Shown: positions 9,330-37,482 of the stretch, piece by piece
How positions within the stretch are numbered: the first letter of the stretch is position 1
Layout: every line of letters begins with the position of its first letter
Source of the DNA: a virus
Length of the DNA: 64,000 nt
Direction: 5' to 3' (one strand)
IMG/VR virus record: IMGVR_UViG_3300045988_145476
Notes under the pieces: generated by a model
Database searches by the model: none
What the model was told of the DNA's origin: nothing
What the model saw: only the letters and a program-made list of their open reading frames with translations
Made by a program: the position numbers and the translations under genes

Positions 9330-9531
9330 AGTTGATTTTCGTGCTTACGAATATACTAAAGGGTATATAGAAATGACCGAAGACTTGGTTTTACCCTATC
9401 GTACAGAAGAACCTTTCACGGAAGAAACTTCTACGGTATTTATTCACGCACGAAAAATTTTGCATGGGATATTGAATACAATCATAGAGATAAAAGGTAT
9501 TTATCCCCTAACCGTTTATGAAGAACTTTAA
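9307..9531 (+). CDS. hypothetical protein
   Basis: I chose the internal ATG at 9307 within ORF 9247-9531. The start is uncertain. Confidence 0.4.
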   Translation: MLKKRTFRVDFRAYEYTKGYIEMTEDLVLPYRTEEPFTEETSTVFIHARKILHGILNTIIEIKGIYPLTVYEEL

Positions 9532-20361: not shown

Positions 20362-20393
20362 TTTGCAATATTGCGTAGTATTTCCTATATTTG
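20362..20393 (+). promoter_or_regulatory. consensus Bacteroides-type promoter (TTTG-N20-TAtaTTTG)
   Basis: TTTG at 20362-20365 and TATATTTG at 20386-20393, 20 nt upstream of the folE ATG. Confidence 0.6.
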
Positions 20394-20413
20394 TATATCA
20401 AACTTAAATCATT

Positions 20414-21088
20414 ATGCTGGACAAATCAAAAACGGACCCGAAGTTAGGTAGGGAAATCCACCAACTTCTACATGACACAGGAATCGAAACCCCTATGATA
20501 GACTCAACGTTTCAGACCGAATCTGAAAAGTTTACCGCCATACGGGACAGCTTTAAGACTATCATGCAAACTCTTGGAATGGACTTGACCGATGATAGCC
20601 TTTCGGAAACCCCAAATCGTATTGCCAAGATGTACCTCAACGAAATATTTTGGGGTCTTGATTACAACAACTTCCCGAAAGTAACCACCATAGACAATAA
20701 GATGCAGTATAATTCCATGCTGCTGGAAAGAAACATAAAAGTTTCTTCATTCTGTGAGCACCACTTTGTGAACTTTGTAGGCAGTGCGTATGTTGCTTAC
20801 ATCCCGCACGGGAAAATAATCGGTTTGTCAAAGATAAACCGCATTGTTGAGTTCTTCTGCCGCAGGCCACAAGTGCAGGAACGCCTGTGTGAACAAATAT
20901 GGGCGGCTCTCTGCCATGTACTTGAAACCGAAGACATTGCCGTTCTTATTCGTGCAGAACATTTCTGCGTTAAGTCAAGAGGAGTTGAGGATATTAATTC
21001 CGATACGGTTACTTCCCGTTTGGGCGGTTTGTTCTATGACAGTGAGCAAAGGGACGAGTTTTATAAGGTACTCAACTTTGGTGTATGA
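20414..21088 (+). CDS. folE: GTP cyclohydrolase I
   Basis: 'SFCEHHFVNFVGSAYVAYIPHGKIIGLSKINRIVEFFCRRPQVQERL' contains the FolE hallmark motifs CEHH, GLSK and RPQVQERLT. Confidence 0.9.
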   Translation: MLDKSKTDPKLGREIHQLLHDTGIETPMIDSTFQTESEKFTAIRDSFKTIMQTLGMDLTDDSLSETPNRIAKMYLNEIFWGLDYNNFPKVTTIDNKMQYNSMLLERNIKVSSFCEHHFVNFVGSAYVAYIPHGKIIGLSKINRIVEFFCRRPQVQERLCEQIWAALCHVLETEDIAVLIRAEHFCVKSRGVEDINSDTVTSRLGGLFYDSEQRDEFYKVLNFGV

Positions 21089-23880: not shown

Positions 23881-24261
23881 ATGGCAAATACCGTTGTACC
23901 CTATGAAACAGCCAAGAAGCTGAACGCTATTGGCTTTTGTGAACCGTTGAACAGATATTATACCAAAAGAGGTGTATTCATAACAACCATTGGGCATATA
24001 TCTCCCAAGGCGTTTTCTTTACCCTCCTTGTTTGACGTTCTGGCTCCCACTTACCAAGAAGCTGCCGATTTTCTCCGGAAGAAGTCCTATTGTGTAGGTG
24101 TTATCCCTATGATTGATAAAGATGGAATATACTTTCATGTGAAGGTTCTCTACGCTCCGAACTTTATCGAAGAGCATTTTGAGAAACGTTATGCTCATTT
24201 TTCTACTGCATTGAAAGAGGGTGTTGACTATTTAATCGAAAAGCTATATGAAGTACGCTAA
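23881..24261 (+). CDS. hypothetical protein, paralogue family with 10425 and 12689
   Basis: I prefer the ATG at 23881 (MANTVVPYETAKKLNAIGF...). The upstream part of ORF 23746 overlaps the small gene. Confidence 0.5.
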   Translation: MANTVVPYETAKKLNAIGFCEPLNRYYTKRGVFITTIGHISPKAFSLPSLFDVLAPTYQEAADFLRKKSYCVGVIPMIDKDGIYFHVKVLYAPNFIEEHFEKRYAHFSTALKEGVDYLIEKLYEVR

Positions 24262-24619
24262 AGTATTAAGGCAAGCACTGAACGCCTTATTTTATCTCTG
24301 CTCTCTAATAGGATTCATGCAGTTCTTATCTCTTATAATGTTTCCTCACTTGAGATTGGTTGTTCTCATACTTATTGCCGTTGGAATTTTCCTATGGTGT
24401 ATTATCTATGCTGTGGAAACCCCAAGCCAGTATTACTACTATGTGGTCGCACAAGTAGAGGGGAAATTCTTATATACTCGAATAAAGTCCGAAAAGGAGC
24501 TTACCTATTGGGGAGCCACTGAACTAATTTCGAGGGAAAGGGAACTCGCTTATCCTATTATCGTTATTAACATGCAAAGAATAACCGAAGAAGAATATAA
24601 CTCCGTATATTTTCCCTAA
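24248..24619 (+). CDS. membrane protein (2 TM)
   Basis: 123 aa. Hydrophobic segments LFYLCSLIGFMQFLSLIMF and LVVLILIAVGIFLWCIIYAV. Confidence 0.5.
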   Translation: MKYAKVLRQALNALFYLCSLIGFMQFLSLIMFPHLRLVVLILIAVGIFLWCIIYAVETPSQYYYYVVAQVEGKFLYTRIKSEKELTYWGATELISRERELAYPIIVINMQRITEEEYNSVYFP

Positions 24620-25014
24620 TGCTTAGCCCCTTGCAAATTCGGATGCTTAAAGGACTTGTTTGCCCTTATTGTCACCGACCCACCCAGCTTGTAGACAGTT
24701 CCGAAGTGTATGGCCGTTCTTATGGTATGATTTATTTGTGTAGACCTTGTAATGCGTACGTGGGATGCCACCAAGGAACGACCAACGCTTTGGGACGTGT
24801 CGCAAATGCTGAATTGAGGATAGCCAAAAAGTTGGCGCATGAAAAGTTTGACCCGTTATGGAGAAACGGTTACATGACAAGGCATGAAGCGTACAAGTGG
24901 TTGTCTGACAAATTAGGAATCCCTGCCGAATATACCCATATAGGAATGTTTAATGTGGACACTTGTCACAAAGTTGTTTCCCTTTGTATAAATTATCTTC
25001 AAGAAAAGTTATGA
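24619..25014 (+). CDS. DUF3268-like zinc-finger protein
   Basis: 'CPYCHRPTQLVDSSEVYGRSYGMIYLCRPCNAYVGCHQGTTNALGRVANAELRIAKKLAHEKFDPLW' matches the DUF3268 zinc-ribbon pattern as I remember it. Confidence 0.6.
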   Translation: MLSPLQIRMLKGLVCPYCHRPTQLVDSSEVYGRSYGMIYLCRPCNAYVGCHQGTTNALGRVANAELRIAKKLAHEKFDPLWRNGYMTRHEAYKWLSDKLGIPAEYTHIGMFNVDTCHKVVSLCINYLQEKL

Positions 25015-25307
25015 ACCTTACTTTTGACGAAATGATAGAGAGGACTTTACGCCCGAATGTACATACGATATTCTATTCCTTGAAGAAAGTGGTAGATGAA
25101 GTTCTCCCTTTACTTGGGATAAAGGAGTTTTATGTGAAACCCGCCCATCCGGGTTGCAGAGGGGTCGAGTTCTTTGTACTATCTAAAGAAGACAAAGAGA
25201 AGATGGAATCCCTTTTGTGTAAAAACTACAAATACGGTGATAGGATAATCATTTTCTCCCCATTAAGAGAAAAAGGCATATTCTATGCTTCTGTACGTAG
25301 AAGTTAA
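25011..25307 (+). CDS. hypothetical protein
   Basis: The ATG at 25011 forms an ATGA overlap with the upstream stop. Confidence 0.5.
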   Translation: MNLTFDEMIERTLRPNVHTIFYSLKKVVDEVLPLLGIKEFYVKPAHPGCRGVEFFVLSKEDKEKMESLLCKNYKYGDRIIIFSPLREKGIFYASVRRS

Positions 25308-25348
25308 CTTTAAATAAACGTGTATTTACTCATCAAAAGATATAGGCT

Positions 25349-25678
25349 ATGATTATAAAAGTACCAATTGTTACAGTAAGTAATGAAGAGGAATATTACT
25401 ATTACTGCTGTTGTAAAGACCTTCGTTGCTCCACAAAAGGTAATTCCGTAGAAAAAGTGGAGAAACAAATAGTACAAATGATTAAGAGCGTACTCACCCC
25501 TCTGGATATTGACTATCTGAAAGAGTTGGGCTGGTCGTATTCAGGCTCCGTATTGGAAAACCCAAAATATACTACCTATGACTTGCAGGATTTCCTAAAG
25601 GCTAACTGCCCATTCACTATTACGGAATCAACTCATATATTTCCCGTAAAGACAGTATCTATTCCAGTCGGTGAGTAG
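25349..25678 (+). CDS. hypothetical protein (weak HicB/UPF0150-like N-terminus)
   Basis: 109 aa. 'IIKVPIVTVSNEEEYYYYCCCKDLRCSTKGNSVEKVEKQIVQMIKSVL' loosely resembles the HicB-fold pattern. The resemblance is weak. Confidence 0.45.
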   Translation: MIIKVPIVTVSNEEEYYYYCCCKDLRCSTKGNSVEKVEKQIVQMIKSVLTPLDIDYLKELGWSYSGSVLENPKYTTYDLQDFLKANCPFTITESTHIFPVKTVSIPVGE

Positions 25679-25708
25679 ACCGTTTTCCACCTTTTAAGAA
25701 GGGGTAAT

Positions 25709-25740
25709 TTTGGTTTTGTCGTTCCGATAGACTATATTTG
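25709..25740 (+). promoter_or_regulatory. consensus Bacteroides-type promoter (TTTG-N20-TAtaTTTG)
   Basis: TTTG at 25709-25712 and TATATTTG at 25733-25740, 29 nt upstream of the dps ATG. Confidence 0.6.
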
Positions 25741-25769
25741 TGGTGTTGTACAACTTAAAAGATTTGATT

Positions 25770-26222
25770 ATGGTAACTATTCAAGAAGAAACAGCAGTTA
25801 AAATGCGCAGCTTGCTTGCGTCTTTGACAGTGTTTTATCAAAAGACCCATGTATATCACTGGGATTTGGTCGGTAGAAGTTTCAATCAGCTCCATGCGTT
25901 CTTCGAGGAACTCTATAATGAGGCGGTGAAAAATACCGATGCAGTCGCAGAACGTTTACGACAGGCAAATATACGTACTAACCTATCGTTGACGGAAGCG
26001 GTAAGACTTTCCGGAGTAGAAGATGACGTATCTGCCGAGAGTGACGAGGAAATGGTAACTGATTTGATACGTTCTCTGGCAATATTAACTGCCTTGCAAA
26101 CGGAAATATTCATGGAAGCCAATGATGCAAACGATTATGTAACGGCTGACCTAATGACCCAGCTAACCAAACAGGCCGATTTCAATAGTTGGTTCTTGAC
26201 CTCTTGGAAAGAAAACAGATAG
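25770..26222 (+). CDS. dps: Dps / ferritin-like DNA-binding protein
   Basis: 'FYQKTHVYHWDLVGRSFNQLHAFFEELYNEAVKNTDAVAERLRQ' matches the Dps signature (hvyHWnv.G..F..lH..fee.y.e....D.iAERi). I prefer the ATG at 25770 over the GTG at 25740. Confidence 0.8.
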   Translation: MVTIQEETAVKMRSLLASLTVFYQKTHVYHWDLVGRSFNQLHAFFEELYNEAVKNTDAVAERLRQANIRTNLSLTEAVRLSGVEDDVSAESDEEMVTDLIRSLAILTALQTEIFMEANDANDYVTADLMTQLTKQADFNSWFLTSWKENR

Positions 26223-26392
26223 TGAAAAAACAGTTTTTGTGTGTTAGTTTAATTCATTCAGTTAAGAATAGCGGTTCCCGTAGGTTATTTAGTAATGTTT
26301 CGTTTCGTATTAGTAGTAAATTGAAATGCACAGGATTTGCGTCCTTATAGACCAAGCGAGGTCGAACTATTGGAATTAGTTATTCGGTAAAG

Positions 26393-26422
26393 AGAGTGGC
26401 TTGTGAAAGTCGCTCTTTTTTC
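26393..26422 (+). terminator. rho-independent terminator
   Basis: AGAGTGGC (26393-26400) pairs with GTCGCTCT (26409-26416), giving 8 bp including two G-U pairs. A T6 run follows at 26417-26422. Confidence 0.55.
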
Positions 26423-26872
26423 TGCCTTGTCAGAACGAAAAACGGGTAAATTTATCTCTGAAACTAAGACAACCTCATTTTTCTATTTTAAAAAGACCAA
26501 TTTTTACCCTCTTCCAACAGATACTATCCACATGCAGGAAAAATTTCCTTTTTTGCAGGGAAAATCTTCCCTTTTCCATAGAAATAACATAACTGCCTAA
26601 CTAAGCTAACCAATAGAAAGTGTAGGGTAAACCGTACTTCTTTAAGTAATTACGTATGAACGCTCCCAAAAGAAAACAGATTCGCGGCTGAATGTTTTCT
26701 GTACTCTATAATACTTAATACTATATAATACTACATAAAAGATATATGTGGTGGGTTTCTCTCAAATTACGTAAACTCATGTGGTGGGTAATGGGTAGAT
26801 AGGTAGAAAAGAAAGGTTATTGTAGATACCGATAGAAAATGGCCCTACGCATACGTGTAGACGTGGTTGTGG

Positions 26873-27072
26873 GCTTATTCTAATTAGCTATTTACGGCAA
26901 TAAGCATTATTTTCCATGCGTAATTAGCGTTATTTACTGCGTGTAATTAGCTATTTTCTCTCTGTACGAGCGTTTATTTTAATTAGAAACGCAGTTATTT
27001 TAATTAGAAATACGCTTATTCTAACTGGAAATAGGTTTATTTTTCTGTGCAAATAAGCTATTTTAGGCGAAA
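26873..27072 (+). repeat. iteron-like array built on TTATT(N)TAATTAG(A/C)(A/T)A
   Basis: Core motifs at 26980 (TAATTAG), 27001 (TAATTAG) and 27022 (TAACTGG) are phased exactly 21 bp apart, each ending in GAAA. Degenerate units lie on both sides, including TAATTAG at 26881, 26921 and 26944. Confidence 0.75.
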
Positions 27073-27207
27073 TTTCCATAGATGTTTACAAAAACGCCTA
27101 TTTTTTAATTTAAGCCGATATTGATTATCAGATAGTTAGCAAAAAATCTCCTATGAAAGTATAAAAAACGCAGATTTAGAAATATTTTTACTTTCTAATT
27201 AGATTTT

Positions 27208-27223
27208 GGTTATTGCAATAACC
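27208..27223. repeat. perfect 16-bp palindrome GGTTATTGCAATAACC
   Basis: Read directly. Related GGTTATTG half-sites lie at 26815-26822, 28084-28098 (GGTTATTGTAATAAC) and 28147-28154 (reverse complement). Confidence 0.9.
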
Positions 27224-27428
27224 ACAACTACGTATGTAGATAACCAGTTACGCAGTAGAATTGGTGGTTTATTATGTGTAATTAGTATATAGCTGTATGT
27301 AACTATATGTAATTACCGCAGATTTATTATATAACTACCGGATTAATTGTTCCTGCGTGTTATTTTTCCGTATTAATTAAGTAGGAAATATATTATATAG
27401 AGTAATTGGGAGTTATTTTATTTATCGT

Positions 27429-27681
27429 ACGGCGAAAAATTTAATTTTTGGCGGGATAATTTCTAATTAGCGTATTATAATAAGTAATTAATCACCGTAA
27501 TAAGGAAAGATTTTATTCTCCGTGCGGATTATTCGTATTATCTACGGGAATATTATATGAATTTCTAACTGGAAACCTTTTTACGGCGGAAAATTAAGTA
27601 GTAATTATATTAGTTAGCGTATAAAGCGAAAAACAATTCGGCGAATTTTTAATTTACGGCGGGATAATAGTACGTAGCGTA
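27429..27681 (+). repeat. three copies of a composite ~40-45-bp repeat (CGGCG-A/T run-GGCGGGATAAT-TAGCGTA)
   Basis: R1 27429-27474, R2 27583-27621 (degenerate) and R3 27639-27681. GGCGGGATAAT occurs at 27450 and 27658. TAGCGTA occurs at 27468, 27615 and 27675. Confidence 0.7.
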
Positions 27682-28171
27682 GACAGGATTTCAGTTCACG
27701 GAGCTGAATTTACTGGCAGGGGGGTACCCTTAAATGGAATGCGGCGCACGGTCGGCTTGGGGTAGTACGGTTAGGTAAGAAAGGAGTGGTGGAAAGTCGG
27801 ACAATAATTAGTGTATATATGATAACTTCGGAAGTTTGTGTATGTGTGGTAACTTTGGTGGATACGGGTGGTGTGCGTGTGAAAATCGGTGGTAACGGGT
27901 GAAAAACGGGTGATTTGGAAATGTACTTGAAAATACAGGGTGCGGTTGACGTTTGGTGTGGAAATAAATTGCCGGAAGTTTGGAGTTCTCACTAAATATT
28001 AGTATATTAATATATAATTACTTGTATATAGTACTATGAAAGATATAGTGTCCGGATGTTTGGGATGCTTATCGGTCGGTTATGGTTATTGTAATAACTG
28101 GTAGTCGGTACGGTGGTATTTCCGTTAAATAATGTTATTATATAAACAATAACCAAATATTTTACCGGATA

Positions 28172-28207
28172 TGTTTGGTTATCTTATATAAAGTAACTAT
28201 ATTTGTA
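28172..28207 (+). promoter_or_regulatory. consensus promoter inside 36-bp repeat copy 1
   Basis: TGTTTGGTTATCTTATATAAAGTAACTATATTTGTA. TTTG at 28174-28177, N20, TATATTTG at 28198-28205. It is identical to 30727-30762. Confidence 0.7.
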
Positions 28208-28270
28208 ATGTGAAAAACGAAACGCACCTATCGGTATATTGCTGACGGGTAACCAGAAAATCCTACGACA

Positions 28271-28462
28271 ATGAAAACGAAAGAAATCAAGAAGCAACTC
28301 GAAATGATGTACAATTTCTATGAAGCGGATGCGCAGCTCTGTGCGATGGCTGACATGAACTACAATTGGGGAATGCATATCGAACAGGGGTACCAAATAA
28401 TCTCTGAGCGATTAGGAGTCAGTGTTGACGAAGTAAGAAGCGTTGACGAATGTTGTGAATAA
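28271..28462 (+). CDS. hypothetical protein
   Basis: 63-aa ATG ORF, first gene after the promoter. Confidence 0.5.
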   Translation: MKTKEIKKQLEMMYNFYEADAQLCAMADMNYNWGMHIEQGYQIISERLGVSVDEVRSVDECCE

Positions 28463-28476
28463 AAAGCATAAGGACT

Positions 28477-29019
28477 ATGGAACGAAACGAATTAATCATG
28501 GAGATACACAAATGTTCTCCGATGTATCCAGTTAAGAAGTTGCAGCAGATGAATGACGACACGCTGGCTAATCTCTACAAGTGGACGTGCAAACCTGCGA
28601 AAGTGGTAAAGGACGACCGTCTTTATTCCCAATCGGGAGACGTGGTGAAAGTAAAGGAAACGTATGAGGAGAAATGCGGTGAGTTGCTTGACCCGTACGA
28701 CCCGGATTATCTGAGCACGTCCCCTACGAAGGACGACCCTATCTCCCCTTATGAGAAACGGTTCCTGCATAAGGTGTCTATCTTGCAGAACAAGTTGCGC
28801 AGGGAAGGCGTTTCCGCTGACTGGGACGAGTACCGCCAGTGTTTCCGTGTCGCAAGGTACATAAGTTCGTACCCGACTTATCGGTATGTGCGGGTGAACT
28901 TGGACGAGAACGACTATTCGTTCGGTGACGAAAAGGACGATTTCTTTTGGGACGGTAAAGTATCTGCCGTGGTTGCGGAAGTGAAAAAATGGGTGAACGC
29001 CAAACTTATCAAAAAATAA
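28477..29019 (+). CDS. hypothetical protein
   Basis: 180-aa ATG ORF in a GC-richer region. The long antisense shadow ORF is judged spurious. Confidence 0.6.
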   Translation: MERNELIMEIHKCSPMYPVKKLQQMNDDTLANLYKWTCKPAKVVKDDRLYSQSGDVVKVKETYEEKCGELLDPYDPDYLSTSPTKDDPISPYEKRFLHKVSILQNKLRREGVSADWDEYRQCFRVARYISSYPTYRYVRVNLDENDYSFGDEKDDFFWDGKVSAVVAEVKKWVNAKLIKK

Positions 29020-29025
29020 AACGCT

Positions 29026-29223
29026 ATGAAAAGGATATGTGATTTTATACACGGACGGTTCGGACGCAAAGTTTTGAAACCGGGTTACAGGGAAATATGG
29101 GTTCGCACGATGTATTGCCTGCTGCTCGTAATCGGAGTACTGGCTATGGCGGTGGTCGTGCAAGTGTGGAGCTGGCTGGTCGGTTTCCTTAATGCGATGG
29201 CTTGGGGGACTACGGTATGGTGA
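29026..29223 (+). CDS. small membrane protein
   Basis: 65 aa. Hydrophobic segments 'MYCLLLVIGVLAMAVVVQVWSWLVGFL'. Confidence 0.45.
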   Translation: MKRICDFIHGRFGRKVLKPGYREIWVRTMYCLLLVIGVLAMAVVVQVWSWLVGFLNAMAWGTTVW

Positions 29224-29981
29224 CTATCGGTATATTCGGCAGGGAGTACAGGTTTTGTCGCAGTGTGAAGGCCTCTTACAGTGACCGGCATAATCGTGCG
29301 GTGAAACTTGCGGAAAGGTTCGAGAGCCTGTCCGAGAAGTTTGACGGTATGTTCAGTAGGGGCGGTTGCGGTGAGACGCTCAATTCCCGTCTGGCGCTTG
29401 CCTGCAAGATGATGATGTACACCGGCATCCGTATCGGTAACGAGGGAAGTGCCGAGGGGTATATGACTAAACCGCACCCCAATTCCAAGGAACAGCCCCA
29501 GTTCGTGCAGACGTACGGCCTTACCACGCTTCTTCCCCAGCACATGAGTATCAGACGTGGGAAAGTGTACCTTAACTTTCTTGGTAAGAGACGTGTGGAC
29601 AACAGCTTTGTACTTGACGGTAAACTCGCAGGACAGGTTAGGGACATGTCCGGGTATATCTCCGAGGGGGAAACCCTTTTCGAGATTACTTCCTACGAAC
29701 TTACCAAGTTCATAAAGAAGTATGTGGGCAGACAGTTTACCCCGAAGGACTTCCGTACCATGAGGGCTAATATGTACGCATGGGAAAAGTTCGAGGAGAT
29801 ATGCGAAAGGGAGCTGCCCAGTACCAAGACCGAGTATAACGGAGAGGTTAAGGAAATCGCCACTTATGTCAGCGAGAAACTCAACAATACTCCGGGTGTA
29901 TGTAAGAAAAGCTATATTGATGAACTGCTTTGGGACGAGTTCAGTGACGCCCGTCCCGTAACTAAAAGGAATAAAAAATGA
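29217..29981 (+). CDS. type IB DNA topoisomerase (compact, bacterial/poxvirus-like catalytic domain)
   Basis: All five catalytic-pentad contexts are recognisable: 'TGIRIGNE' (Arg), 'YGLTTL...LNFLGKRRV' (Lys), 'FTPKDFRTMRAN' (Arg), 'LNNTPGV' (Asn/His position) and 'CKKSYI' (Tyr). I prefer the ATG at 29217 over the TTG at 29202. Confidence 0.8.
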   Translation: MVTIGIFGREYRFCRSVKASYSDRHNRAVKLAERFESLSEKFDGMFSRGGCGETLNSRLALACKMMMYTGIRIGNEGSAEGYMTKPHPNSKEQPQFVQTYGLTTLLPQHMSIRRGKVYLNFLGKRRVDNSFVLDGKLAGQVRDMSGYISEGETLFEITSYELTKFIKKYVGRQFTPKDFRTMRANMYAWEKFEEICERELPSTKTEYNGEVKEIATYVSEKLNNTPGVCKKSYIDELLWDEFSDARPVTKRNKK

Positions 29982-30298
29982 ATAAACAAGAAGCTATCCA
30001 ATGGATGTTGCGTGGCGCAAGGCTCACGCACAAGTATTTCTCCTCTGACGAATGGGTTACTATCGGTGAGGACGGTCTTATCGAACTCGAAGACGGGGTG
30101 AGGTGTACCCCCGCTGAATTTTGGTCGTGCCGCAGTGGAGAATGTTTTGAGACGGGGTGGGATTTTGTAAGCTCCCCCGATGTATATACGTGTATTGCCG
30201 CAAGGGAGTTCAACTGTGCGGTTGAGGATGTTTCCCCTCTTGAGCGGGCATGTATGAAAAGCAAATATTTCGTTTTTATGTATAATTCTAAAAGATAA
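29978..30298 (+). CDS. hypothetical protein
   Basis: 106 aa with an ATGA overlap to the topoisomerase stop. 'EAIQWMLRGARLTHKYF...EW' is only loosely DUF2829-like. Confidence 0.5.
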   Translation: MNKQEAIQWMLRGARLTHKYFSSDEWVTIGEDGLIELEDGVRCTPAEFWSCRSGECFETGWDFVSSPDVYTCIAAREFNCAVEDVSPLERACMKSKYFVFMYNSKR

Positions 30299-30303
30299 AT
30301 GTT

Positions 30304-30657
30304 ATGGGTATTCATTTAAGTAAAAAACACGGGGTAAACCCAAGTATAGAAATTTGTGCCGTTTGCGGTAAGGGAATTGGAGTTGCATTACTCGGTAGGT
30401 TAAAGAATGATGCAGAGGCTCCCGGAGAAGTGTGCCTTGGAAATCTTTGTGACACTTGTCAGGGTGTAGTTGATGCCGGCGGTACCCTTATCATAGAGAC
30501 TGTTGACGGTGAACCATGCAGTAAGAACCCTACCCGTACGGGGCGTATCGTTGGTATCACGCACGAAGCCGCTGAAAGGCTCTTCCATAGTCACGCACCC
30601 GTTGCCTATATGGTACATACCGACTTTACAAATATATTCGGAGAATCATTCAATTAG
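30304..30657 (+). CDS. hypothetical protein with two CxxC pairs
   Basis: 117 aa, with 'CAVCGKG' and 'CDTCQG'. Confidence 0.5.
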   Translation: MGIHLSKKHGVNPSIEICAVCGKGIGVALLGRLKNDAEAPGEVCLGNLCDTCQGVVDAGGTLIIETVDGEPCSKNPTRTGRIVGITHEAAERLFHSHAPVAYMVHTDFTNIFGESFN

Positions 30658-30726
30658 TCGGTATCACTCTGATATAACAGTACTTATTCGGTTATTCCTT
30701 ATGCGTTAACTATTATTAATACTCTT

Positions 30727-30762
30727 TGTTTGGTTATCTTATATAAAGTAACTATATTTGTA
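30727..30762 (+). promoter_or_regulatory. consensus promoter inside 36-bp repeat copy 2
   Basis: Identical 36-mer to 28172-28207, lying 29 nt upstream of the ATG at 30792. Confidence 0.7.
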
Positions 30763-30791
30763 CATGAATTAAAACTAACAGTTGAGGATAT

Positions 30792-31460
30792 ATGAAGACT
30801 AACAGACAACAAGCGAAAGATATCATGGCACGTATCCATGAATTATTGCAGCCCCTCGCATCGGAGTTTAACATGAACGCATACGTGGACAGTGCAACGT
30901 TTTCCAGCGAGGGAACCTCTTTGAACTCACTTACTTGTAAGTTGCGGATAGTTCCTTTGGAAGGCGGAACGAAAGTAAGTTTTGAAAAAGCTCCCTCTGG
31001 CAAGTACCCCGTTGGCACTGTATGGTATTCGTCCAGTAAGGACATGTATTACAAAGTTCTCGAATGTGTTCTGAAACGGAAGTATTCCTATTCTGTTATG
31101 GCTTACGATGGTAAGAACGTTGTCAGCAGAACGACAGGAACCTTTCTTGATTCTTGCACGCAGGTAACTATTCCGACATTTGCGGATTTCCGACTTTACC
31201 TTACGATGGCTTATGACGACGACAGGCTTACTTCCCAACAGCTTACTATTTGGGATTCCGTTGATAATACGTACGCTTTTATCTTTCGTGAAAACGAGGA
31301 ACTGGCTCAGAAAGTGCTTGATTTGGTTGACAAACTTTCCGAAGCCACCCGAAAGGCTAACGTCAAGAGTATCTACGATACGCTGTTCATTAAGAAATCA
31401 ACCACCGCTCTAAATGATACTTATTTATTACTCAAAAAATTGTATAAAGATGGAAAGTAA
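30792..31460 (+). CDS. hypothetical protein
   Basis: 222-aa ATG ORF. Confidence 0.55.
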   Translation: MKTNRQQAKDIMARIHELLQPLASEFNMNAYVDSATFSSEGTSLNSLTCKLRIVPLEGGTKVSFEKAPSGKYPVGTVWYSSSKDMYYKVLECVLKRKYSYSVMAYDGKNVVSRTTGTFLDSCTQVTIPTFADFRLYLTMAYDDDRLTSQQLTIWDSVDNTYAFIFRENEELAQKVLDLVDKLSEATRKANVKSIYDTLFIKKSTTALNDTYLLLKKLYKDGK

Positions 31461-31782
31461 AAGAAACACTTCTGAGGTTAAAACCTTAATTCGTATCGGT
31501 TTTGAGAAACCGTCCTATTTTAAACGAAGCGTCTGGGTAAAAGTTGAACGGATAATGACGTTCCTGCAACACAGAGGCGAGGTTTATGAAAACAACGGCG
31601 AATGTAAATTCATCCCCCGTAACGGTAACTATACCGAACATGATTTGGAACGTTGGGCTAACATGTGGTTGGACTCTCCTTTTGAAGACCACCTTGACGA
31701 ACTCCGCAGATTGTCAGCGGAAACGGGACTCCCGTTAAATGACAAGCGTTTATTGAACAAATATTATAACTGTAAAAACTAA
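31450..31782 (+). CDS. hypothetical protein
   Basis: I chose the ATG at 31450 (MESKRNTSEV...). Confidence 0.5.
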   Translation: MESKRNTSEVKTLIRIGFEKPSYFKRSVWVKVERIMTFLQHRGEVYENNGECKFIPRNGNYTEHDLERWANMWLDSPFEDHLDELRRLSAETGLPLNDKRLLNKYYNCKN

Positions 31783-31787
31783 AGATT

Positions 31788-33251
31788 ATGGAAGCAAAAA
31801 AATTCGTATCAACAATCAAAGGTTATAGAACTCGTTTTACAAATAAGCCTAATGCCGAACTTGAGAAGAAACAAATCGAAGGAACTATTGAGAACTTCGG
31901 TGGTAAGATAACCGCATTTACCGAATTGAAAAAAGCCGATGCCGAATTGCTGGCATACGTTAAGGGAGTTCTTGGTATGGTTAAGGTTGCACCCGTTGAA
32001 AATGCTGAGAAACCAGTTGAAAAAGCTGCACCTAAAAAGTCCTCTAAGAAGCAGGCTCCTGTTGAAGCCGACAGTGAGGAAGAAACGCTCGCTTCCTCTA
32101 CAAGCGGAAGTCTGTACGAAATAGATACCGTTAAGAAAACATGCAAACGTATCTTTAAGGATTTGAAACAGATTGACATTGACGCTATCGAAGTTACGGA
32201 AATGCCAATGACTACCTATCACAGATATTTGCTTGATACATTCCCCGGCGAAGGAGCCAAACTGAACAAAAAAGGACAACTTACTTTTCGTGGCTACCGC
32301 ATACAGTGTACTATTGAGAACGGTTTCACTATTGAGGACATTAAAACACGTGCATTGGTGGCTACACCTTTCGAGGGCATCCCTACTCCGAGAGAATTGG
32401 GAGACTTTTTCAAACGACCCGTTGTTGAACATACACCCGAAGAACTTCAAGAGGCTGTAAAACGTGGTAAGGAACTGATGGAGAAATCCGAAAAAGAACA
32501 TAAGGAAGAAGCTCCTATTGATTTTGAACTTCTGAGAAAGAAAGTTATCGGTAAAATCATAGCTATTCGTAACAAGAAGGTTTCCGATTTCGACCCAGAA
32601 ACTTTCCCCGAAATGATACCGTTCAGACGTTGGAAAATCAATGCCCGTATGCTTCTTAATAAGTGGAAAGAACGTAAGATGCGTTATCCTAAATTCTTGG
32701 ATGAACTTGAAAAACTTACTCGTGAAGAAACCTTTGAAACGAAAAAACAAAAGGCTCCCAAGTTTGTTGGAACTTTACTTCCCGAATACACATCGGTAGG
32801 TGAACTCAAAGGCGATACGATAATCGTTGACGGTAAGAGCGTTCCCGCTTCTCCGTTTATACGGGATGTTCTTCTCCACTTTGAACCGGCAGTGATGCCG
32901 CAACTTATGCGATATGCTACGGGAGCTATTGACAGGATACAACTTCTTACCTCTCCGATTGAGAAGCATCCCGAAATAGAATATAATTCAAAGGTCTGTG
33001 AACATGTATCAGCGGAATTATTAACTTTGCTGTGTACGAGCGTCGGTATTGTTCCCCCGCAAGATTTACTCTATGACAGCGGTCTGGAAGTTGACGACAG
33101 AGTTCTGTTCCATGACGGTGATGAATGGGTGGTTAAGAAAGTTACCGAAATCTCGGATGCGGTTTATCTCGGCAAGGACTTTGCTTTACTCAAAACGGAT
33201 AAGTGGTTAAAACTTGAAGAAGGTGAAAAATCGAAGAAACAAAAGAAGTAA
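31788..33251 (+). CDS. hypothetical protein (487 aa, Lys/Glu-rich)
   Basis: Long ATG ORF with a charged linker 'AEKPVEKAAPKKSSKKQAPVEADSEEE'. The antisense 313-aa ORF is judged a shadow. Confidence 0.6.
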   Translation: MEAKKFVSTIKGYRTRFTNKPNAELEKKQIEGTIENFGGKITAFTELKKADAELLAYVKGVLGMVKVAPVENAEKPVEKAAPKKSSKKQAPVEADSEEETLASSTSGSLYEIDTVKKTCKRIFKDLKQIDIDAIEVTEMPMTTYHRYLLDTFPGEGAKLNKKGQLTFRGYRIQCTIENGFTIEDIKTRALVATPFEGIPTPRELGDFFKRPVVEHTPEELQEAVKRGKELMEKSEKEHKEEAPIDFELLRKKVIGKIIAIRNKKVSDFDPETFPEMIPFRRWKINARMLLNKWKERKMRYPKFLDELEKLTREETFETKKQKAPKFVGTLLPEYTSVGELKGDTIIVDGKSVPASPFIRDVLLHFEPAVMPQLMRYATGAIDRIQLLTSPIEKHPEIEYNSKVCEHVSAELLTLLCTSVGIVPPQDLLYDSGLEVDDRVLFHDGDEWVVKKVTEISDAVYLGKDFALLKTDKWLKLEEGEKSKKQKK

Positions 33252-33291
33252 CAATACATTGTTGGGAGCTTTACGGCTCCCGCAATCTGTT

Positions 33292-33582
33292 ATGCAGTTA
33301 CGAGGTGACTTGGCAGTTCTCTCAAAGGATGCGTTTATGGATGTACATGAATGTTCCGAACAGGATTACTGGAAATACTTCGACCAGTTCGGGCCTTCCG
33401 AATTGCTGGCGTTTATTCATAGCTTGATTACAGACCTTATGATAGGACGTATTCGTTGTGAGCCTGCCGAACTTATACCTTTTATTATACACAACTATTT
33501 AAAAAGATACATTGAATTAACTTTTATAAAAGACGGATATGAAACGACTAACTTTTACCTTAGCGATTTTGATGTTTGCTAA
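33292..33582 (+). CDS. hypothetical protein
   Basis: I prefer the ATG at 33292 over the TTG at 33214. Confidence 0.45.
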   Translation: MQLRGDLAVLSKDAFMDVHECSEQDYWKYFDQFGPSELLAFIHSLITDLMIGRIRCEPAELIPFIIHNYLKRYIELTFIKDGYETTNFYLSDFDVC

Positions 33583-33997
33583 TTTGGCATTCGCACAAGT
33601 AAGATTTGACTTATTACCTCGGAACGTGTACAAAGTTCTCGGCCATACCGACCGGACATCCTTTGAAGCTATCGTAGGGGAACCAGTCGGTGAGGAGAAC
33701 GGGTGTATCGTCTATGAAGTCGAATCGGCTTACGATAACATGGTAACGGCTATCCGCTGTACCTACAAGAATGACACCCTTGTAGCCATTACATTCGGCA
33801 CCGCATATTATTCTGCGTACTGGCTTGGCATGGTTACACTAAAATCTCCGCACAAGACACAGCGTACTTTCCGTGAAAATGAGTACGGACAGAGAACCGC
33901 CATTTATTCTTGGAACGGTAAGTTCGGCTGTAACATTCTTGGAATAAAACAAGACTCCGAACGCTCTACGGCAATCATCAATTACTTTTTAAAATGA
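33539..33997 (+). CDS. secreted protein (signal peptidase I-type signal peptide)
   Basis: The N-terminus 'MKRLTFTLAILMFANLAFA/QV' has the n-h-c layout with an AxA cleavage motif. There is no lipobox Cys. Confidence 0.55.
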   Translation: MKRLTFTLAILMFANLAFAQVRFDLLPRNVYKVLGHTDRTSFEAIVGEPVGEENGCIVYEVESAYDNMVTAIRCTYKNDTLVAITFGTAYYSAYWLGMVTLKSPHKTQRTFRENEYGQRTAIYSWNGKFGCNILGIKQDSERSTAIINYFLK

Positions 33998-34105
33998 TAA
34001 CGCTCGGAATTATCTTCGTGATATGTGCTTGCTGCACGAAACGAACCTTTTGGAAATGCGTGTTTTGGACACTCGCTATATTATCAGTATTTTAAAACAG
34101 TAATT

Positions 34106-34414
34106 ATGGAACTTAGAAGTACAAACGTTCAACGGATTTGGAAAGAAACTGTTCTCTGTGTTATCGGAGAAGACCTCGGTATCAATAAACAAAAGTTCGA
34201 GGAGAATAAAAGTAATATTAAATCAATGCTCTCGCAGATTAAGACCGAAGACGGTTATGCGTATTGTTGCGGTTGCCACATACGGACTGACGGTGAACAA
34301 TGGACACCTTACATTCAGATAATCGAAATGCTTCTTCGTATGGGAAAGAAAATCGGTTGCATAAAATATGTCGGAGCATTGAAAGAACATACATTAATTA
34401 AAATCATACTATAA
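34106..34414 (+). CDS. hypothetical protein
   Basis: I prefer the ATG at 34106 within ORF 34025-34414. Confidence 0.45.
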   Translation: MELRSTNVQRIWKETVLCVIGEDLGINKQKFEENKSNIKSMLSQIKTEDGYAYCCGCHIRTDGEQWTPYIQIIEMLLRMGKKIGCIKYVGALKEHTLIKIIL

Positions 34415-34698
34415 TGGCAAAGATAAACAGACCTAAAGGAACACCCATTGAACTTGCGGCCATACGCAAGCGTTTACGGGAAGTAGTGATTGATAAATAT
34501 GGAAGTATCCCTAAATTCCTGCGTACTGACGAGGGAATTAAACTTGGCGGTATGCGTATAAAGCCTTGTTTCTACGATAAGGGTACGGTTAGTATATCTG
34601 TATTAAATAACCTTTGTCAGTATTTCGGCATCGGTGAATTAACTCGAAAAGTTCGCATTATACGAACGGTTGATTATTTCCTGAATACTCCTATTTAA
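34414..34698 (+). CDS. hypothetical protein (possible HTH)
   Basis: 94 aa. 'VSISVLNNLCQYFGIGEL' is weakly XRE-like. Confidence 0.45.
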   Translation: MAKINRPKGTPIELAAIRKRLREVVIDKYGSIPKFLRTDEGIKLGGMRIKPCFYDKGTVSISVLNNLCQYFGIGELTRKVRIIRTVDYFLNTPI

Positions 34699-34753
34699 TA
34701 ACCTAAAAAGTTCCGCAAATCGCCCGAAAATGCGTGTTTTTTATGCTAAATTT

Positions 34754-34805
34754 CCTACACCGTTACGACTTATGAAAGTTTTTTCTATCTTTGTAACGGT
34801 GTAGG
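34754..34805. promoter_or_regulatory. -7 box bracketed by a perfect 13-bp inverted repeat (operator-like)
   Basis: CCTACACCGTTAC (34754-34766) and GTAACGGTGTAGG (34793-34805). TATCTTTG at 34786-34793 overlaps the right arm by 1 nt. The ATG is at 34835. Confidence 0.6.
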
Positions 34806-34834
34806 ATTTAATCTATTAGCTAATAGTATTTCGT

Positions 34835-35305
34835 ATGAAAAAAGAGAAAACAATTAAAACCTATCAGCGTCGCACGAAAACCGGAAAGACTGTGACGGTG
34901 AGAGCGCATAAATCTTCCTACGAGGCTGGTAACGGTAAACGTGATACTGTGAAGACCCGTTCCAAGAAAAATGCGGGCGTTGAATTTGAGAAGCGTACTT
35001 CCATGCCCGACCCTAAATTGTCGGCAAAGGATTATTTGGATGCCTTGAAAAAACGACAGGCTGATTTACGTAAAGAGAAAATCAAAAAGACCAAACGCCC
35101 AGTCAACGGTAGCATTACTGGTCTTGAACCGAAAAAGAAATCTCCTGCAAAAAAGAAGGGTGCTTCTCGTAGAGAAAAACCATCTGAAAAAAATGCGAAG
35201 AAACTTATATATAGTTCAAGCTCGGATGTGTATAAGAGAGATAGTAAGGGAGAACTTATTAAAGTTGGAAAATGGGATGGTAAGAAACCCTCTGTAAAAA
35301 AGTAA
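34835..35305 (+). CDS. Lys-rich basic protein, shared N-terminal motif family (tandem copy 1)
   Basis: MKKEKTIKTYQRRTKTGKTVTVRAHKSSY..., then 'KKNAGVEFEKRTSMPDPKLSAKDYLDALKK'. It is collinear with copy 2 over about 75 aa. Confidence 0.65.
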   Translation: MKKEKTIKTYQRRTKTGKTVTVRAHKSSYEAGNGKRDTVKTRSKKNAGVEFEKRTSMPDPKLSAKDYLDALKKRQADLRKEKIKKTKRPVNGSITGLEPKKKSPAKKKGASRREKPSEKNAKKLIYSSSSDVYKRDSKGELIKVGKWDGKKPSVKK

Positions 35306-35309
35306 CGCT

Positions 35310-36221
35310 ATGAAAAAGGAAAAACAAGTCAAATCATATCAACGCAGAACCAAGTCGGGTAAAGTGGTTACTGTAAAAGCCCATACTGCAAAGTATGATG
35401 CTGCTGAAAAAGCTAAGGAAGCTGCCAAGAAAAAAGGTGCTGGTAAAGAACTTGAGGATAAGTTCGGTAAAAAGAAAATGCCTGACCCTAATCTTTCTAT
35501 GAATGAATACCTTGATGAATTGAAGAAAGGAAAAAAATCTGGGTCTAATGAGGTGGCTAATGAGGACGAGAAAACTCAACGTAGTGGTCTTTCATCTTTG
35601 GAAAAGAAACTTACCTCTAAGGAGAGTAAGCTTAAAGAGTTAAAGAACTCCCATTCTACTATGAAACGGAGTGACCCCAAAAAGTTGGCACTCGCTAAGA
35701 AAATCCAAAAATTGCAGTCTGATATTATTGAGACTAAGAGTGCTGTGGCTTCACAAAGAAAGGTTGTTACAGACCTGAATACTTCAAAGTCTAAAAAACG
35801 CTCTGAGGGTGAAGGTGCTTCTATGGTTGAACATAATGGGAAGCAGTATTTTGTCAATTTTAAGACTGGTAAGGTTGAAACTTCTTCTGGAAAACCTATT
35901 AGTAGTAATGGAGCTATCGCAAAAGCAATTTTATCTAAACATAAGGAGAACCGTGTTACTCCTAAAGATAAGAAACCTATGGTACAAACTACCAAGAGTT
36001 CTGCTAAACCGACATCTTCTGGACAGGCATTTACGGCCGCTGAATTTAAAGAATGGTATCGTGGTACAGGAAGTGCTGCCGATAAAAAAGTCGCTAAAGC
36101 ACTCCGTTCGCAATTAGGACGTTCCGGATACCGTAAATTTGAAGACGAAGCCATTAACAATTATTCCTCAAGAGGACATTTGTCGATGTTCAAGAGAATA
36201 GGAGCAAATATCGAAAAATAA
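35310..36221 (+). CDS. Lys-rich basic protein, shared N-terminal motif family (tandem copy 2)
   Basis: MKKEKQVKSYQRRTKSGKVVTVKAHTAKY..., then 'KKGAGKELEDKFGKKKMPDPNLSMNEYLDELKK'. 303 aa. Confidence 0.65.
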   Translation: MKKEKQVKSYQRRTKSGKVVTVKAHTAKYDAAEKAKEAAKKKGAGKELEDKFGKKKMPDPNLSMNEYLDELKKGKKSGSNEVANEDEKTQRSGLSSLEKKLTSKESKLKELKNSHSTMKRSDPKKLALAKKIQKLQSDIIETKSAVASQRKVVTDLNTSKSKKRSEGEGASMVEHNGKQYFVNFKTGKVETSSGKPISSNGAIAKAILSKHKENRVTPKDKKPMVQTTKSSAKPTSSGQAFTAAEFKEWYRGTGSAADKKVAKALRSQLGRSGYRKFEDEAINNYSSRGHLSMFKRIGANIEK

Positions 36222-36241
36222 AATTCAAAAGGTATAATATT

Positions 36242-36613
36242 ATGTCAATACAAGTAAAGTCCTACACATATAAGCGTAATGGGAAAACTATTGTTGTGAA
36301 AGGATATACAAGAAAAGGAAATTCTGCACAGAGTAAATCTCCTCGTAGTAGAAAAGGAGCAGGAGGTGAACTTAAAGACAGGGTTTTGCCTAAAATTAGG
36401 TATAATTCTCTGCACGCTATGGAAGATTATCCTTCAACAAATGCTCCACAAAGCCGTCATGGACAAAATTCAAAGGCTGATTGGGAGGGTTATGTAGCTC
36501 GTTTACAAAAGGCGATTAGTATGGAAAACTTACATGGAGGTAGTAAGGAAAGAATTACTAAGCTAAAGGGTAAACTTCGCAGTGCAGAGAAAAAAGTAAG
36601 GACTTGGAAATGA
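36242..36613 (+). CDS. basic protein, shared N-terminal motif family (tandem copy 3)
   Basis: MSIQVKSYTYKRNGKTIVVKGYTRKG..., then 'RKGAGGELKDR'. Confidence 0.6.
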   Translation: MSIQVKSYTYKRNGKTIVVKGYTRKGNSAQSKSPRSRKGAGGELKDRVLPKIRYNSLHAMEDYPSTNAPQSRHGQNSKADWEGYVARLQKAISMENLHGGSKERITKLKGKLRSAEKKVRTWK

Positions 36614-36625
36614 CCGTCAATGCTA

Positions 36626-36695
36626 TTTAGGTAATTCAAATTAAATTTTTATCTTTGCAGGTGAACATCAGTAAAATGGTGTTCACCTATTTTTG
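36626..36695 (+). promoter_or_regulatory. promoter-like element followed by a leader hairpin and T-run
   Basis: TTTA at 36626-36629, N20, TATCTTTG at 36650-36657. Then GGTGAACA (36660-36667) pairs with TGTTCACC (36680-36687), followed by TATTTTTG. Confidence 0.45.
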
Positions 36696-36715
36696 CGTCT
36701 AAAGCGTAGTAAGGT

Positions 36716-36928
36716 ATGAATATATCTTCGTCAAATATCAGAACGGCTGACTATGATAGAAAATCACGGACGTTGACTATGGTCTTTATCAATAGACCCC
36801 GATGGGTATATACCTATTATAATGTCCCCCCTACTGTATGGACACGTTTTTTACAGTCAAACAGTAAAGGACAATATTTTTCTGCCGCTATCCGAGACAT
36901 TTACCAGTATTCGAGAACAATCAAGTAA
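36716..36928 (+). CDS. KTSC-domain protein
   Basis: 'SSNIRTADYDRKSRTLTMVFINRPRWVYTYYNVPPTVWTRFLQSNSKGQYFSAAIRDIYQY' follows the KTSC pattern (SS.I..v.Yd...~.L.v.F..g..Y.Y..VP..vy..l..a.S.G.yfn..Ir..Y). Confidence 0.75.
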   Translation: MNISSSNIRTADYDRKSRTLTMVFINRPRWVYTYYNVPPTVWTRFLQSNSKGQYFSAAIRDIYQYSRTIK

Positions 36929-36945
36929 CTTAAATATCAAAGACT

Positions 36946-37482
36946 ATGGCTACAATTACAAGAGCGTTTGAGTTCGACGCAGCACATCGTGTAATGAATG
37001 AGAAAGTAAAATGCTTCAATTTGCACGGGCACCGTTTTAAAGTGGAAATGACTTTTGAGTATAACTCCAAGAGTCTTCTTGGATACGCTATTGACTTTAA
37101 GGAGATAAAGCGTATTGCCTGCGGATATATTGATGAACATTTAGACCACGCTTGCCTACTTAACCCCGAAGATACCGAGCTTATTGAGCTGTGCAGAAAA
37201 CAAAACTGGCGTCTGTGGGTTATGGGAATGGGTGTGTATGGTGACATCAACCCGTCTGCGGAGAATATTGCTTCCGAGCTTTTCTATATTATCAGACAGT
37301 TATTCATTAATGAGCCTTGCGGTTTGCGTCTTACAAACTTACGGCTGTATGAGACACCGAATTGCTGGGTTGATTGTTCCCGCATTGATTATGTGGCTAC
37401 AAATATGTTCCTTGAGAATCTTGGTACATGGAGAAAACAAAAGGGTTCAATGAAGTACGACATAAGAGAAGACCATGAGTAA
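36946..37482 (+). CDS. queD: 6-carboxy-5,6,7,8-tetrahydropterin synthase (QueD/PTPS family)
   Basis: 'FEFDAAHRV...KCFNLHGHRFKVEMTFE' contains the QueD Cys-x3-His-Gly-His zinc/catalytic motif. 'DFKEIK' is typical. It overlaps the terL start by 8 nt. Confidence 0.85.
   Translation: MATITRAFEFDAAHRVMNEKVKCFNLHGHRFKVEMTFEYNSKSLLGYAIDFKEIKRIACGYIDEHLDHACLLNPEDTELIELCRKQNWRLWVMGMGVYGDINPSAENIASELFYIIRQLFINEPCGLRLTNLRLYETPNCWVDCSRIDYVATNMFLENLGTWRKQKGSMKYDIREDHE

Follow-up and report, generated by a model that had tools for sequence, protein, structure and literature searches.

What function resides in 2 kb of DNA with almost no open reading frame (ORF), set in a phage genome that is otherwise packed with genes? 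The locus that raises this question lies at positions 26223-28270 of a 64,000-nucleotide stretch (hereafter the window) of the IMG/VR virus record IMGVR_UViG_3300045988_145476. A preliminary description, made from the letters of the window without database searches, had noted a gap rich in repeats and had proposed as explanations a replication origin, a packaging or terminal-repeat boundary, a regulatory hub with several operators or a structured non-coding RNA (ncRNA). Here we report that the 2-kb gap is non-coding and is an evolutionarily conserved DNA control region of a common human-gut Bacteroides phage. We further propose, with about an even chance of being right, that it is a composite, cis-acting and non-transcribed region at the seam of a one-direction genome, in which an iteron origin is combined with a packaging or terminus site.

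A conserved non-coding gap in a common gut phage

The gap region, together with window positions 24000-31000, matches just one deposited phage, Bacteroides phage BS162P1 (OP172706.1, 88,902 bp), at 99.3-99.7% identity. This phage was isolated as such from sewage, has B. salyersiae as its host, and carries 145 of its 146 annotated coding sequences (CDS) on one strand, with nothing annotated in the part equivalent to the gap. ORFs starting with ATG and at least 60 aa long cover ~91% of the window, in which 26223-28270 is the sole + strand stretch of more than 500 nt that contains no ORF of 70 aa or longer; the initial picture of a gene-saturated genome with a single ORF-poor gap is thus borne out. 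The gap separates the last gene from the first. From the gap onward the genome holds small genes and a topoisomerase IB gene, then genes for the large terminase subunit (TerL), the portal and tail/baseplate proteins, followed by a D10-like helicase, a DnaC-like loader, DnaG primase, PolA and RecA, and finally ~25 kb of small ORFs of no known function and a Dps/ferritin-like gene, after which the gap is reached again. HNH endonucleases are also encoded, and the structural module is of myovirus type. The exact Dps-like protein encoded beside the gap is recorded in 1024 blocks of a public assembly collection, indicating that the phage is very common in the human gut. It fits the published description of the "Flandersviridae", which have colinear genomes with a median of 85 kb and Bacteroides hosts and are often assembled as closed contigs (PMC8008677). 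The gap is not mentioned in that paper (PMC8008677), a literature search by the name BS162P1 found no paper, and the control region appears to be undescribed for this abundant group of gut phages.

Both short ORFs listed for the gap (26403-26600 on the + strand and 27771-27992 on the - strand) exist, and the early judgement that they are implausible as genes was upheld: neither has a tblastn match in 15 divergent relatives, in which the flanking genes are conserved, the 180-aa (28477-29019) and Dps-like genes being found at E = 1e-21 to 1e-45 in the closer lineages and the 180-aa gene weakening to about E = 1e-6 in the most distant ones. A conserved frame in homologues, which the preliminary description had named as the observation that would overturn its view, did not emerge, and the gap is not protein-coding. 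Strains differ by 1-nt homopolymer indels within it. A micro-ORF of 14 codons, running from an invariant ATG in seven of 11 lineages, was rejected because diversity by codon position (5.69, 7.16 and 6.04) has no third-position excess; the +1 frame is likewise open across the whole segment in seven of those 11 lineages, and one lineage (L026) is without the ATG.

The query used to gather relatives was the topoisomerase IB gene, which lies 1 kb 3' of the gap; the search yielded nine IMG/VR and 34 metagenomic loci with 36-99% protein identity (numbered here with the prefix L). An ORF-free gap of 0.85-2.5 kb occupies the same place in every lineage with enough upstream sequence, including all the relatives that this gene recovered at 57-73% identity. 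The gaps of different lineages no longer align as a whole, although most keep one order of modules: a terminator, ~0.4 kb with a few short conserved blocks, AATTAG/CTAATT arrays, a unique block, a G/T-rich stretch with GGGTGATTTGGAA, GTTATTGNAATAAC palindromes and a promoter. The preliminary description had asked whether architecture rather than sequence is conserved, and in most lineages this is what is found. Three classes of putative protein-binding motif thereby retain their identity and order in most lineages, though their surroundings are unalignable. Among 12 near-identical strains the block and palindrome region is as invariant as the coding flanks, one 33-nt unit changes copy number, and the first gene is swapped or missing.

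Modules of the gap

The positions of the individual features are given in Table 1. At its upstream edge, the hairpin with T6 that had been described as opening the gap was confirmed by folding (-20.2 kcal/mol, z = -5.0, none of 200 shuffles as good), and equivalent hairpins lie 3' of the last gene in L008 and L011; the single stretch of L004 that was folded has no terminator hairpin (z = -0.29). A rule-based terminator scan overlooked the hairpin, and scans of the gap for E. coli-type promoters and terminators returned nothing above shuffles. The primary-sigma promoter of Bacteroides consists of a -33 TTTG and a -7 TAnnTTTG element spaced by ~19-21 nt, a consensus that reportedly goes back to Bayley et al. 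in 2000. At the downstream edge, TTTG (28174-28177) and TATATTTG (28198-28205) match this consensus exactly, so that the promoter said to close the gap stands as a Bacteroides-type element but not as an E. coli sigma-70 match. It is conserved in L004, L006 and L008, and the cassette has a near-identical copy 2.5 kb away at 30729-30760. With a few more bases the duplicated unit comes to ~34 nt, TTTGGTTATCTTATATAAAGTAACTATATTTGTA, at 28174-28207 and 30729-30762; further promoters of this class lie at 20386, 25733 and 48879, the motif of the duplicate being at 30753. Sites related to the 16-bp palindrome of the gap occur at 28079-28098 and 28134-28153. Four of the seven GTTAT-N-ATAAC matches in the window fall in the gap, and the GTTATTG(C/T)AATAAC form is confined to it within the window. 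The terminator is predicted to end the last operon, and a host-type (Bacteroides sigma-A) early promoter, accompanied by operator-like palindromes, to start the first; both predictions are well supported. No second two-element promoter (TTTG-N19-21-TAnnTTTG) is present on either strand of the gap, which holds two lone -7-type motifs at 27850 and 28170; because no such promoter lies between the edges, the interior is best read as binding sites at the DNA level.

Table 1 Features of the gap and its edges, in window coordinates
Feature	Position	Strand	Remark
Whole non-coding region	26223-28270		between the last gene (Dps/ferritin-like, 25740-26222) and the first gene (28271-28462)
Predicted intrinsic terminator, hairpin flanked by an A-run and T6	26386-26426	+	folding
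Short blocks conserved in distant relatives, AACCAATAGAAA (26608-26619) and AAAGAAAACAGATTCGCGGC (26668-26688)	26608-26688		blastn or by eye
Tandem unit of ~33 nt carrying ATGTGGTGGGT (26746, 26779)	26738-26792	+	two copies in the window, three in some strains
Array phased at 21-23 bp, units AATTAGAAA-N-CGC-N-TTATTTT	26874-27064	+	best preserved at 26974-27043
Twelve clustered TAATTAG sites, of which three form the palindrome CTAATTAG	26880-27811		excess over shuffles
Perfect 16-bp palindrome GGTTATTGCAATAACC	27207-27222		GTTATTGTAATAAC identical in L022 and L034; related form in L004
Composite repeats, AATTAAGTAG... then TTTAATTT(TT/AC)GGCGGGATAAT	27375-27669	+	two copies 208-217 nt apart
Invariant block, unique in the genome	27702-27830	+	once per genome in the lineages checked
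G/T-rich stretch (GGTGG motifs) holding the conserved GGGTGATTTGGAA (27908-27920)	27780-27990	+	GC skew
Operator-like palindromes GTTATGGTTATTGTAATAAC and GTTATTATATAAACAATAAC	28079-28153		just upstream of the promoter
Predicted Bacteroides-type promoter TTTG-N20-TATATTTG, palindromic spacer	28174-28205	+	65 nt upstream of the first ATG

Between these edges, GC content falls to 22-29% over 26950-27450, compared with 40.6% for the rest of the window. The best-preserved part of the phased array has a period of 21 with 3.3 copies (score 77) in Tandem Repeats Finder (TRF), its wider limits in Table 1 being an extension by eye, and TRF applied to the whole genome found no tandem array of 20-21-bp period outside the gap. 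TAATTAG occurs 12 times on the two strands of the gap against 1.27 ± 1.13 in dinucleotide shuffles; these are 12 of the 15 sites of the whole window, and the gap also holds nine of the ten + strand sites of the 88.9-kb BS162P1 genome. The motif is enriched in the gaps of nine further lineages. Arrays of 20-21 bp on an AATTAG core are present in L026, L028, L031, L034 and L022, with eight consecutive units in L031, and successive AATTAG spacings across nine lineages peak at 20-21 bp (24 of 134) and at 41-42 bp. The composite GGCGG repeats are placed at 27375-27460 and 27592-27669, with a partial third copy at 27580-27596, and ACGGCG-type motifs recur in the gaps of relatives. At least five unrelated repeat families had been listed for the gap; all five are present, but they are not all unrelated, the AATTAG core being common to the 21-bp array and to several of the others. 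Among the short blocks nearer the terminator, 26668-26688 is conserved against L008 by blastn, the conservation of AACCAATAGAAA was read by eye, and ACAGATTCGCGGC is also present in L026.

The invariant block begins with AGCTGAA (27702-27708), followed by a G/C run (27719-27729), TTAAATG (27730-27736) and GGGGTAGT (27759-27766), and its 3' part continues with ...TAAGAA...GTTAT/ATAAC. Across the family it takes the form AGCTGAA...S-run-CCCTTAAATG-N22-GGGGTAGT, or more fully AGCTGAA(A/T)T, a spacer, a pure G/C run (S-run) of 8-10 nt and variable sequence, and CC(C)TTAAATG; its conservation resides in fixed nucleotides, with variable spacing to AGCTGAA. A search of IMG/VR with this pattern returned relatives only (nine hits). 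The block is nearly invariant among the 12 strains except for the length of its G-run, and several lineages have a second, weaker copy ~110 nt downstream, which the window does not. Across 27700-27950 the GC skew reaches +0.49 to +0.67; GGTGG occurs eight times in the whole gap, four of them inside the G/T-rich stretch, and CCACC nowhere in the gap. GGGTGATTTGGAA is conserved in L004, L006, L008, L022 and L024, and the stretch consists, in L028 and L031, of 10-12 copies of the microsatellite TGTGGTGG.

The phage topoisomerase IB gene lies 0.8-1.5 kb downstream of the block in every lineage. The target of poxvirus topoisomerase IB is the pentamer (C/T)CCTT, and CCCTT is found within the block in 11 of 12 lineages; it is common genome-wide, with 45 copies on the + strand and 57 of AAGGG. 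The phage enzyme is closest to D. radiodurans TopIB, in an alignment limited to the C-terminal domain, and the D. radiodurans enzyme is reportedly without CCCTT preference (PMC2666729). That the S-run-CCCTT/AAATG block is a dedicated target of this poxvirus/bacterial-type topoisomerase is a long shot. If true, it would mean a type IB topoisomerase acting site-specifically at the genome seam, for example in processing ends or junctions, or alternatively serving as a swivel where packaging, ejection or replication starts.

Replication, packaging and competing explanations

The composite reading is favoured because an origin and a packaging site both need cis sites and the gap is the sole sizeable non-coding DNA in the genome. 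The two options put forward from the start are not mutually exclusive, and in the comparative data each finds support in particular modules; the composite reading is at its weakest in saying which module serves which function. The AT-rich zone at about 26870-27700, with its 20-21-bp repeats on the AATTAG core, would be an iteron-type replication origin, where an initiator protein of the phage would occupy the repeats along one helical face and open the adjoining AT-rich DNA, after which the DnaC-like loader would place the helicase, with DnaG primase and PolA to follow. The invariant block and the following G/T-rich stretch would form a packaging or genome-end site, which the terminase may recognise and cut in concatemers, probably giving a short direct terminal repeat. 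The G/T-rich + strand would then be the 3'-ending strand at the right-hand end, and as such would be a suitable strand for the phage RecA to load on and begin end invasion.

With regard to replication, the gene set of the phage includes a DnaC-like loader (PHROG E = 1e-32), a primase of DnaG type, a candidate single-stranded DNA-binding protein (E = 2e-8), RecA and PolA, so that a defined origin is to be expected. The loader gene lies ~43.5 kb into the BS162P1 record and has no repeats near it. Iteron-type origins include lambda ori, SPP1 oriL/oriR and the plasmid oriV of the P1, F and RK2 classes. These resemble the gap in their tandem direct repeats of ~19-22 bp, set in helical phase beside an AT-rich stretch, and in a replisome with a loader-dependent helicase. 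Such an origin is marked by at least three direct repeats of ~17-22 bp in helical phase and by an AT-rich unwinding element beside them; the gap shows both, the repeats having a period of 21 bp and 3.3 copies. It differs from those origins in having no adjacent cognate initiator gene and no DnaA boxes in a cluster, and in arrays that run in both orientations with irregular density in several lineages. The earlier remark that no initiator gene sits beside the gap was correct, as the flanking genes have neither initiator nor small-terminase hits in Pfam or PHROG, though loader, primase and RecA are encoded elsewhere. A DnaA-dependent origin was rejected, the gap having only two one-mismatch DnaA boxes (26524 and 27235), unpaired. 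GC skew was also discarded as a locator of the origin; it is uninformative here because total skew is monotonic and skew at third codon positions (GC3) is flat.

With regard to genome ends, the BS162P1 record runs from window position 27390 round to 27444, and the exact 55-nt overlap of its two ends is the mark of an assembly that closed on itself. This is the only assembly derived from virions (a lysate), and it breaks inside the gap, for which the probability by chance is ~2%. The nearest TerL relatives with determined ends are the Streptomyces phages Alone3 and BRock (Borockvirus), whose TerL and portal proteins are 31% identical to those of the Bacteroides phage and whose exact terminal repeats, of 197 bp in Alone3 and 221 bp in BRock, hold many copies of a lineage-specific 6-7-bp motif, which occurs in either orientation. 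Their repeats end in a G/C run and then TAGT, loosely like S-run...GGGG/TAGT here; their genes, in contrast, are not unidirectional. The right repeat boundary in these phages, C-run-TTWA...S-run/TAGT, resembles the block by eye and by a regular expression that picked out the BRock terminal-repeat end and gave no false matches in 1.15 Mb, but the resemblance failed in a profile search. We therefore regard it as post hoc, and homology of the block to terminal-repeat ends was kept as a lead only. A cos site at the G/C run was rejected, as the BS162P1 record passes through it and all nine IMG/VR hits and all long metagenomic contigs carry the block internally. Contig ends were likewise abandoned as markers of termini, there being no consistent pile-up among relatives: the ends of L009 and L010, two contigs of separate samples, are no more than 14 nt apart and lie ~3.2 kb upstream of the gap, at a place where no special sequence was seen, and L037 starts inside the repeat arrays. 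One relative with a genome of ~78 kb lies in a contig of roughly three genome lengths (L030, BNJU01000003.1, 238,388 nt), possibly a concatemer assembly.

Several observations weigh against the composite reading. An nhmmer profile of the Bacteroides-phage block misses the Streptomyces-phage repeat ends (best E = 0.77, elsewhere), Bacillus phage BCD7, another TerL relative, is without the block signature, and metagenomic and IMG/VR contigs run through the block. AATTAG sites are scarce in five lineages (L004, L006, L007, L010 and L016). No initiator or small terminase was recognised beside the gap or elsewhere, there is no DnaA-box cluster in the gap, and the flat GC3 skew across the genome neither supports nor locates an origin.

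The gap may instead be a terminal or packaging region only, of the kind of the T7 junction or the T5 injection stop signal (iss), with the origin elsewhere or with recombination-dependent replication from the ends; the arrays would then bind terminase, packaging or injection-halting proteins and the block would be the cut site or terminal-repeat boundary. We consider this unlikely, though a real contender, since it accounts for a one-strand gene order bracketed by terminator and promoter, for the motif-filled terminal repeats of the TerL relatives, for the break in the BS162P1 contig and for the presence of RecA and a D10-like helicase. The T7 junction was reportedly described by Dunn and Studier in 1983 as the last gene, a repeat array, a 160-bp terminal repeat, a further array, early promoters for the host RNA polymerase and the first gene. 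It shares with our locus one-strand genes, ~1.4 kb of repeat-dense non-coding DNA between the last and first genes, and a unique segment flanked by short-motif arrays and followed by strong host-type promoters. Junctions of this type have their genes on one strand and early promoters of host type close to the left end; here 145 of 146 CDS share a strand and the predicted promoter lies at 28174-28205. In the Bacteroides phage, however, AATTAG recurs in 20-21-bp units where T7 has heptamers, a structural module of myovirus type goes with a replisome of DnaC/DnaG kind, and a search of its genes gave no phage RNA polymerase. The T5 injection-stop region (Repeat Region 3 of the left terminal repeat) is likewise a non-coding region in a dense genome, the two being stretches of 1.2-1.7 kb; that of T5 is 1662 bp long, has repeats and palindromes conserved in order, as in the Bacteroides-phage gap, and straddles the inner boundary of the terminal repeat (10.1101/866236). 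The D10-like helicase and the HNH endonucleases of the Bacteroides phage are a further point of resemblance. Its eight DnaA/DnaA* boxes paired at 3 bp are absent from our gap, there is no sequence similarity, the Bacteroides-phage TerL is not T5-like, and a 10-kb terminal repeat with pre-early genes (which assemblies would collapse), the dmp/A1/A2 genes and two-step injection are T5 features of which none is known for this phage. Moreover, known pac and cos sites less typically have regular direct arrays of 20-21 bp than origins do, the distance from the gap to TerL on its downstream side is 9.2 kb, with no small terminase gene nearby, and the profile of the block gave no link to known terminal-repeat ends. 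A little more doubtful again is a replication origin only, with headful packaging from a pac site elsewhere or with ends elsewhere, and with the block and G/T stretch as accessories of the origin, for instance a site of helicase loading or priming or an R-loop-prone, G-rich non-template strand. The arrays do adjoin the most AT-rich DNA of the region, they have no counterpart of the same period in the genome, loader and primase are present, and assemblies close into circles and pass through the gap. The missing adjacent initiator gene and DnaA boxes count against it, as does the absence of a skew inflection, although skew is uninformative here, and it leaves unexplained why the gap coincides with the seam between the last and first genes.

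The remaining explanations have less in their favour. A purely transcriptional control hub, in which arrays and palindromes would be operators timing early transcription, is improbable. In its favour, there are palindromes beside and across the promoter region, the cassette of the promoter occurs twice, and the first gene varies among strains, as early regions often do. Against it, the sole complete two-element promoter match is 0.5-1.3 kb downstream of most motifs, and the + strand TAATTAG sites are concentrated in the gap and not at other promoters. The hub that the preliminary description had envisaged holds for the edges (terminator, promoter and palindromic operators) and not for the interior. 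We attach very little probability to a locus for one or more long or structured ncRNAs, despite the strong G/T strand asymmetry and the high conservation of the 130-nt block. The Rfam and covariation checks that had been proposed for it found no family (no hits in the gap at the gathering threshold or at E<=1) and no compensatory pairs in a block alignment of 11 lineages, the consensus fold of which reaches -0.42 kcal/mol; the block and G/T stretch fold no better than shuffles (z = +0.9), no promoter match lies upstream, and conservation at fixed nucleotides goes with a variable spacing to AGCTGAA. Just as faint is the prospect of a centromere for plasmid-like partition, with the phage as an episome and the arrays as parS-like sites. 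Arrays of short repeats do resemble plasmid centromeres, and Benler et al. speculated on persistence as extrachromosomal circles, given the frequent closed contigs, but found no partition or lysogeny genes (PMC8008677). No ParA/ParB family match was obtained among the proteins scanned, no relative, whether as prophage or episome, was found in 185,579 species-representative genomes (GTDB), and BS162P1 came from sewage as a phage. The least credible explanation is that of decayed genes or a neutral recombination scar without function, which would suit AT-rich DNA with many stop codons and a repeat of varying copy number, but not a gap present in every lineage with its module order kept in most, motifs invariant amid unalignable flanks, and within-species diversity of the block as low as in the coding flanks.

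Few types of phage are as widespread in human guts as this one. In a cultured isolate, BS162P1, its gap provides defined and conserved sites, namely the AATTAG iterons, the unique block and the palindromes, which are also candidate handles for engineering these phages.

Neighbouring genes and strain variation

The last gene upstream of the gap belongs to the Dps/ferritin-like proteins (Pfam PF00210, E = 1.7e-15) and is kept at the same position in L004, L007 and L016. The first gene 3' of the gap is hypervariable among strains that are otherwise 97-100% identical (L054-L063, about 8490-8700), with versions of 63, 66 or 55 aa, or with the gene missing altogether. The presence of a block at 25070-25470 also varies among strains. 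By coordinate offsets, taking TerL at record position 9334 and window position 37475 and record position 1 as window 27390, the interval from the gap to TerL (about 31000-37475) comes out ~752 nt longer in the window than in BS162P1. Directly 3' of the terminator, a pyrimidine-rich stretch (26450-26600) is skewed the other way from the remainder of the gap, with GC skew values between -0.43 and -0.55, and contains a 21-nt unit in two copies at 26533-26575.

TerL itself (37475-40198) is 907 aa long, and an intein inserted in it is suggested by residues ~257-573, which match primase/helicase and NrdE segments of unrelated phages; the parts on either side match BRock- and BCD7-type terminases. 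The gene upstream of TerL (36946-37482) encodes a QueD-like 6-pyruvoyl-tetrahydropterin synthase, and a GTP cyclohydrolase I gene lies at ~20374-21048 (605-1279 in L054), which suggests a putative pathway for 7-deazaguanine (queuosine-precursor) DNA modification. BCD7, which is related in TerL and portal and has a one-strand layout, carries QueC/D/E and a transglycosylase.

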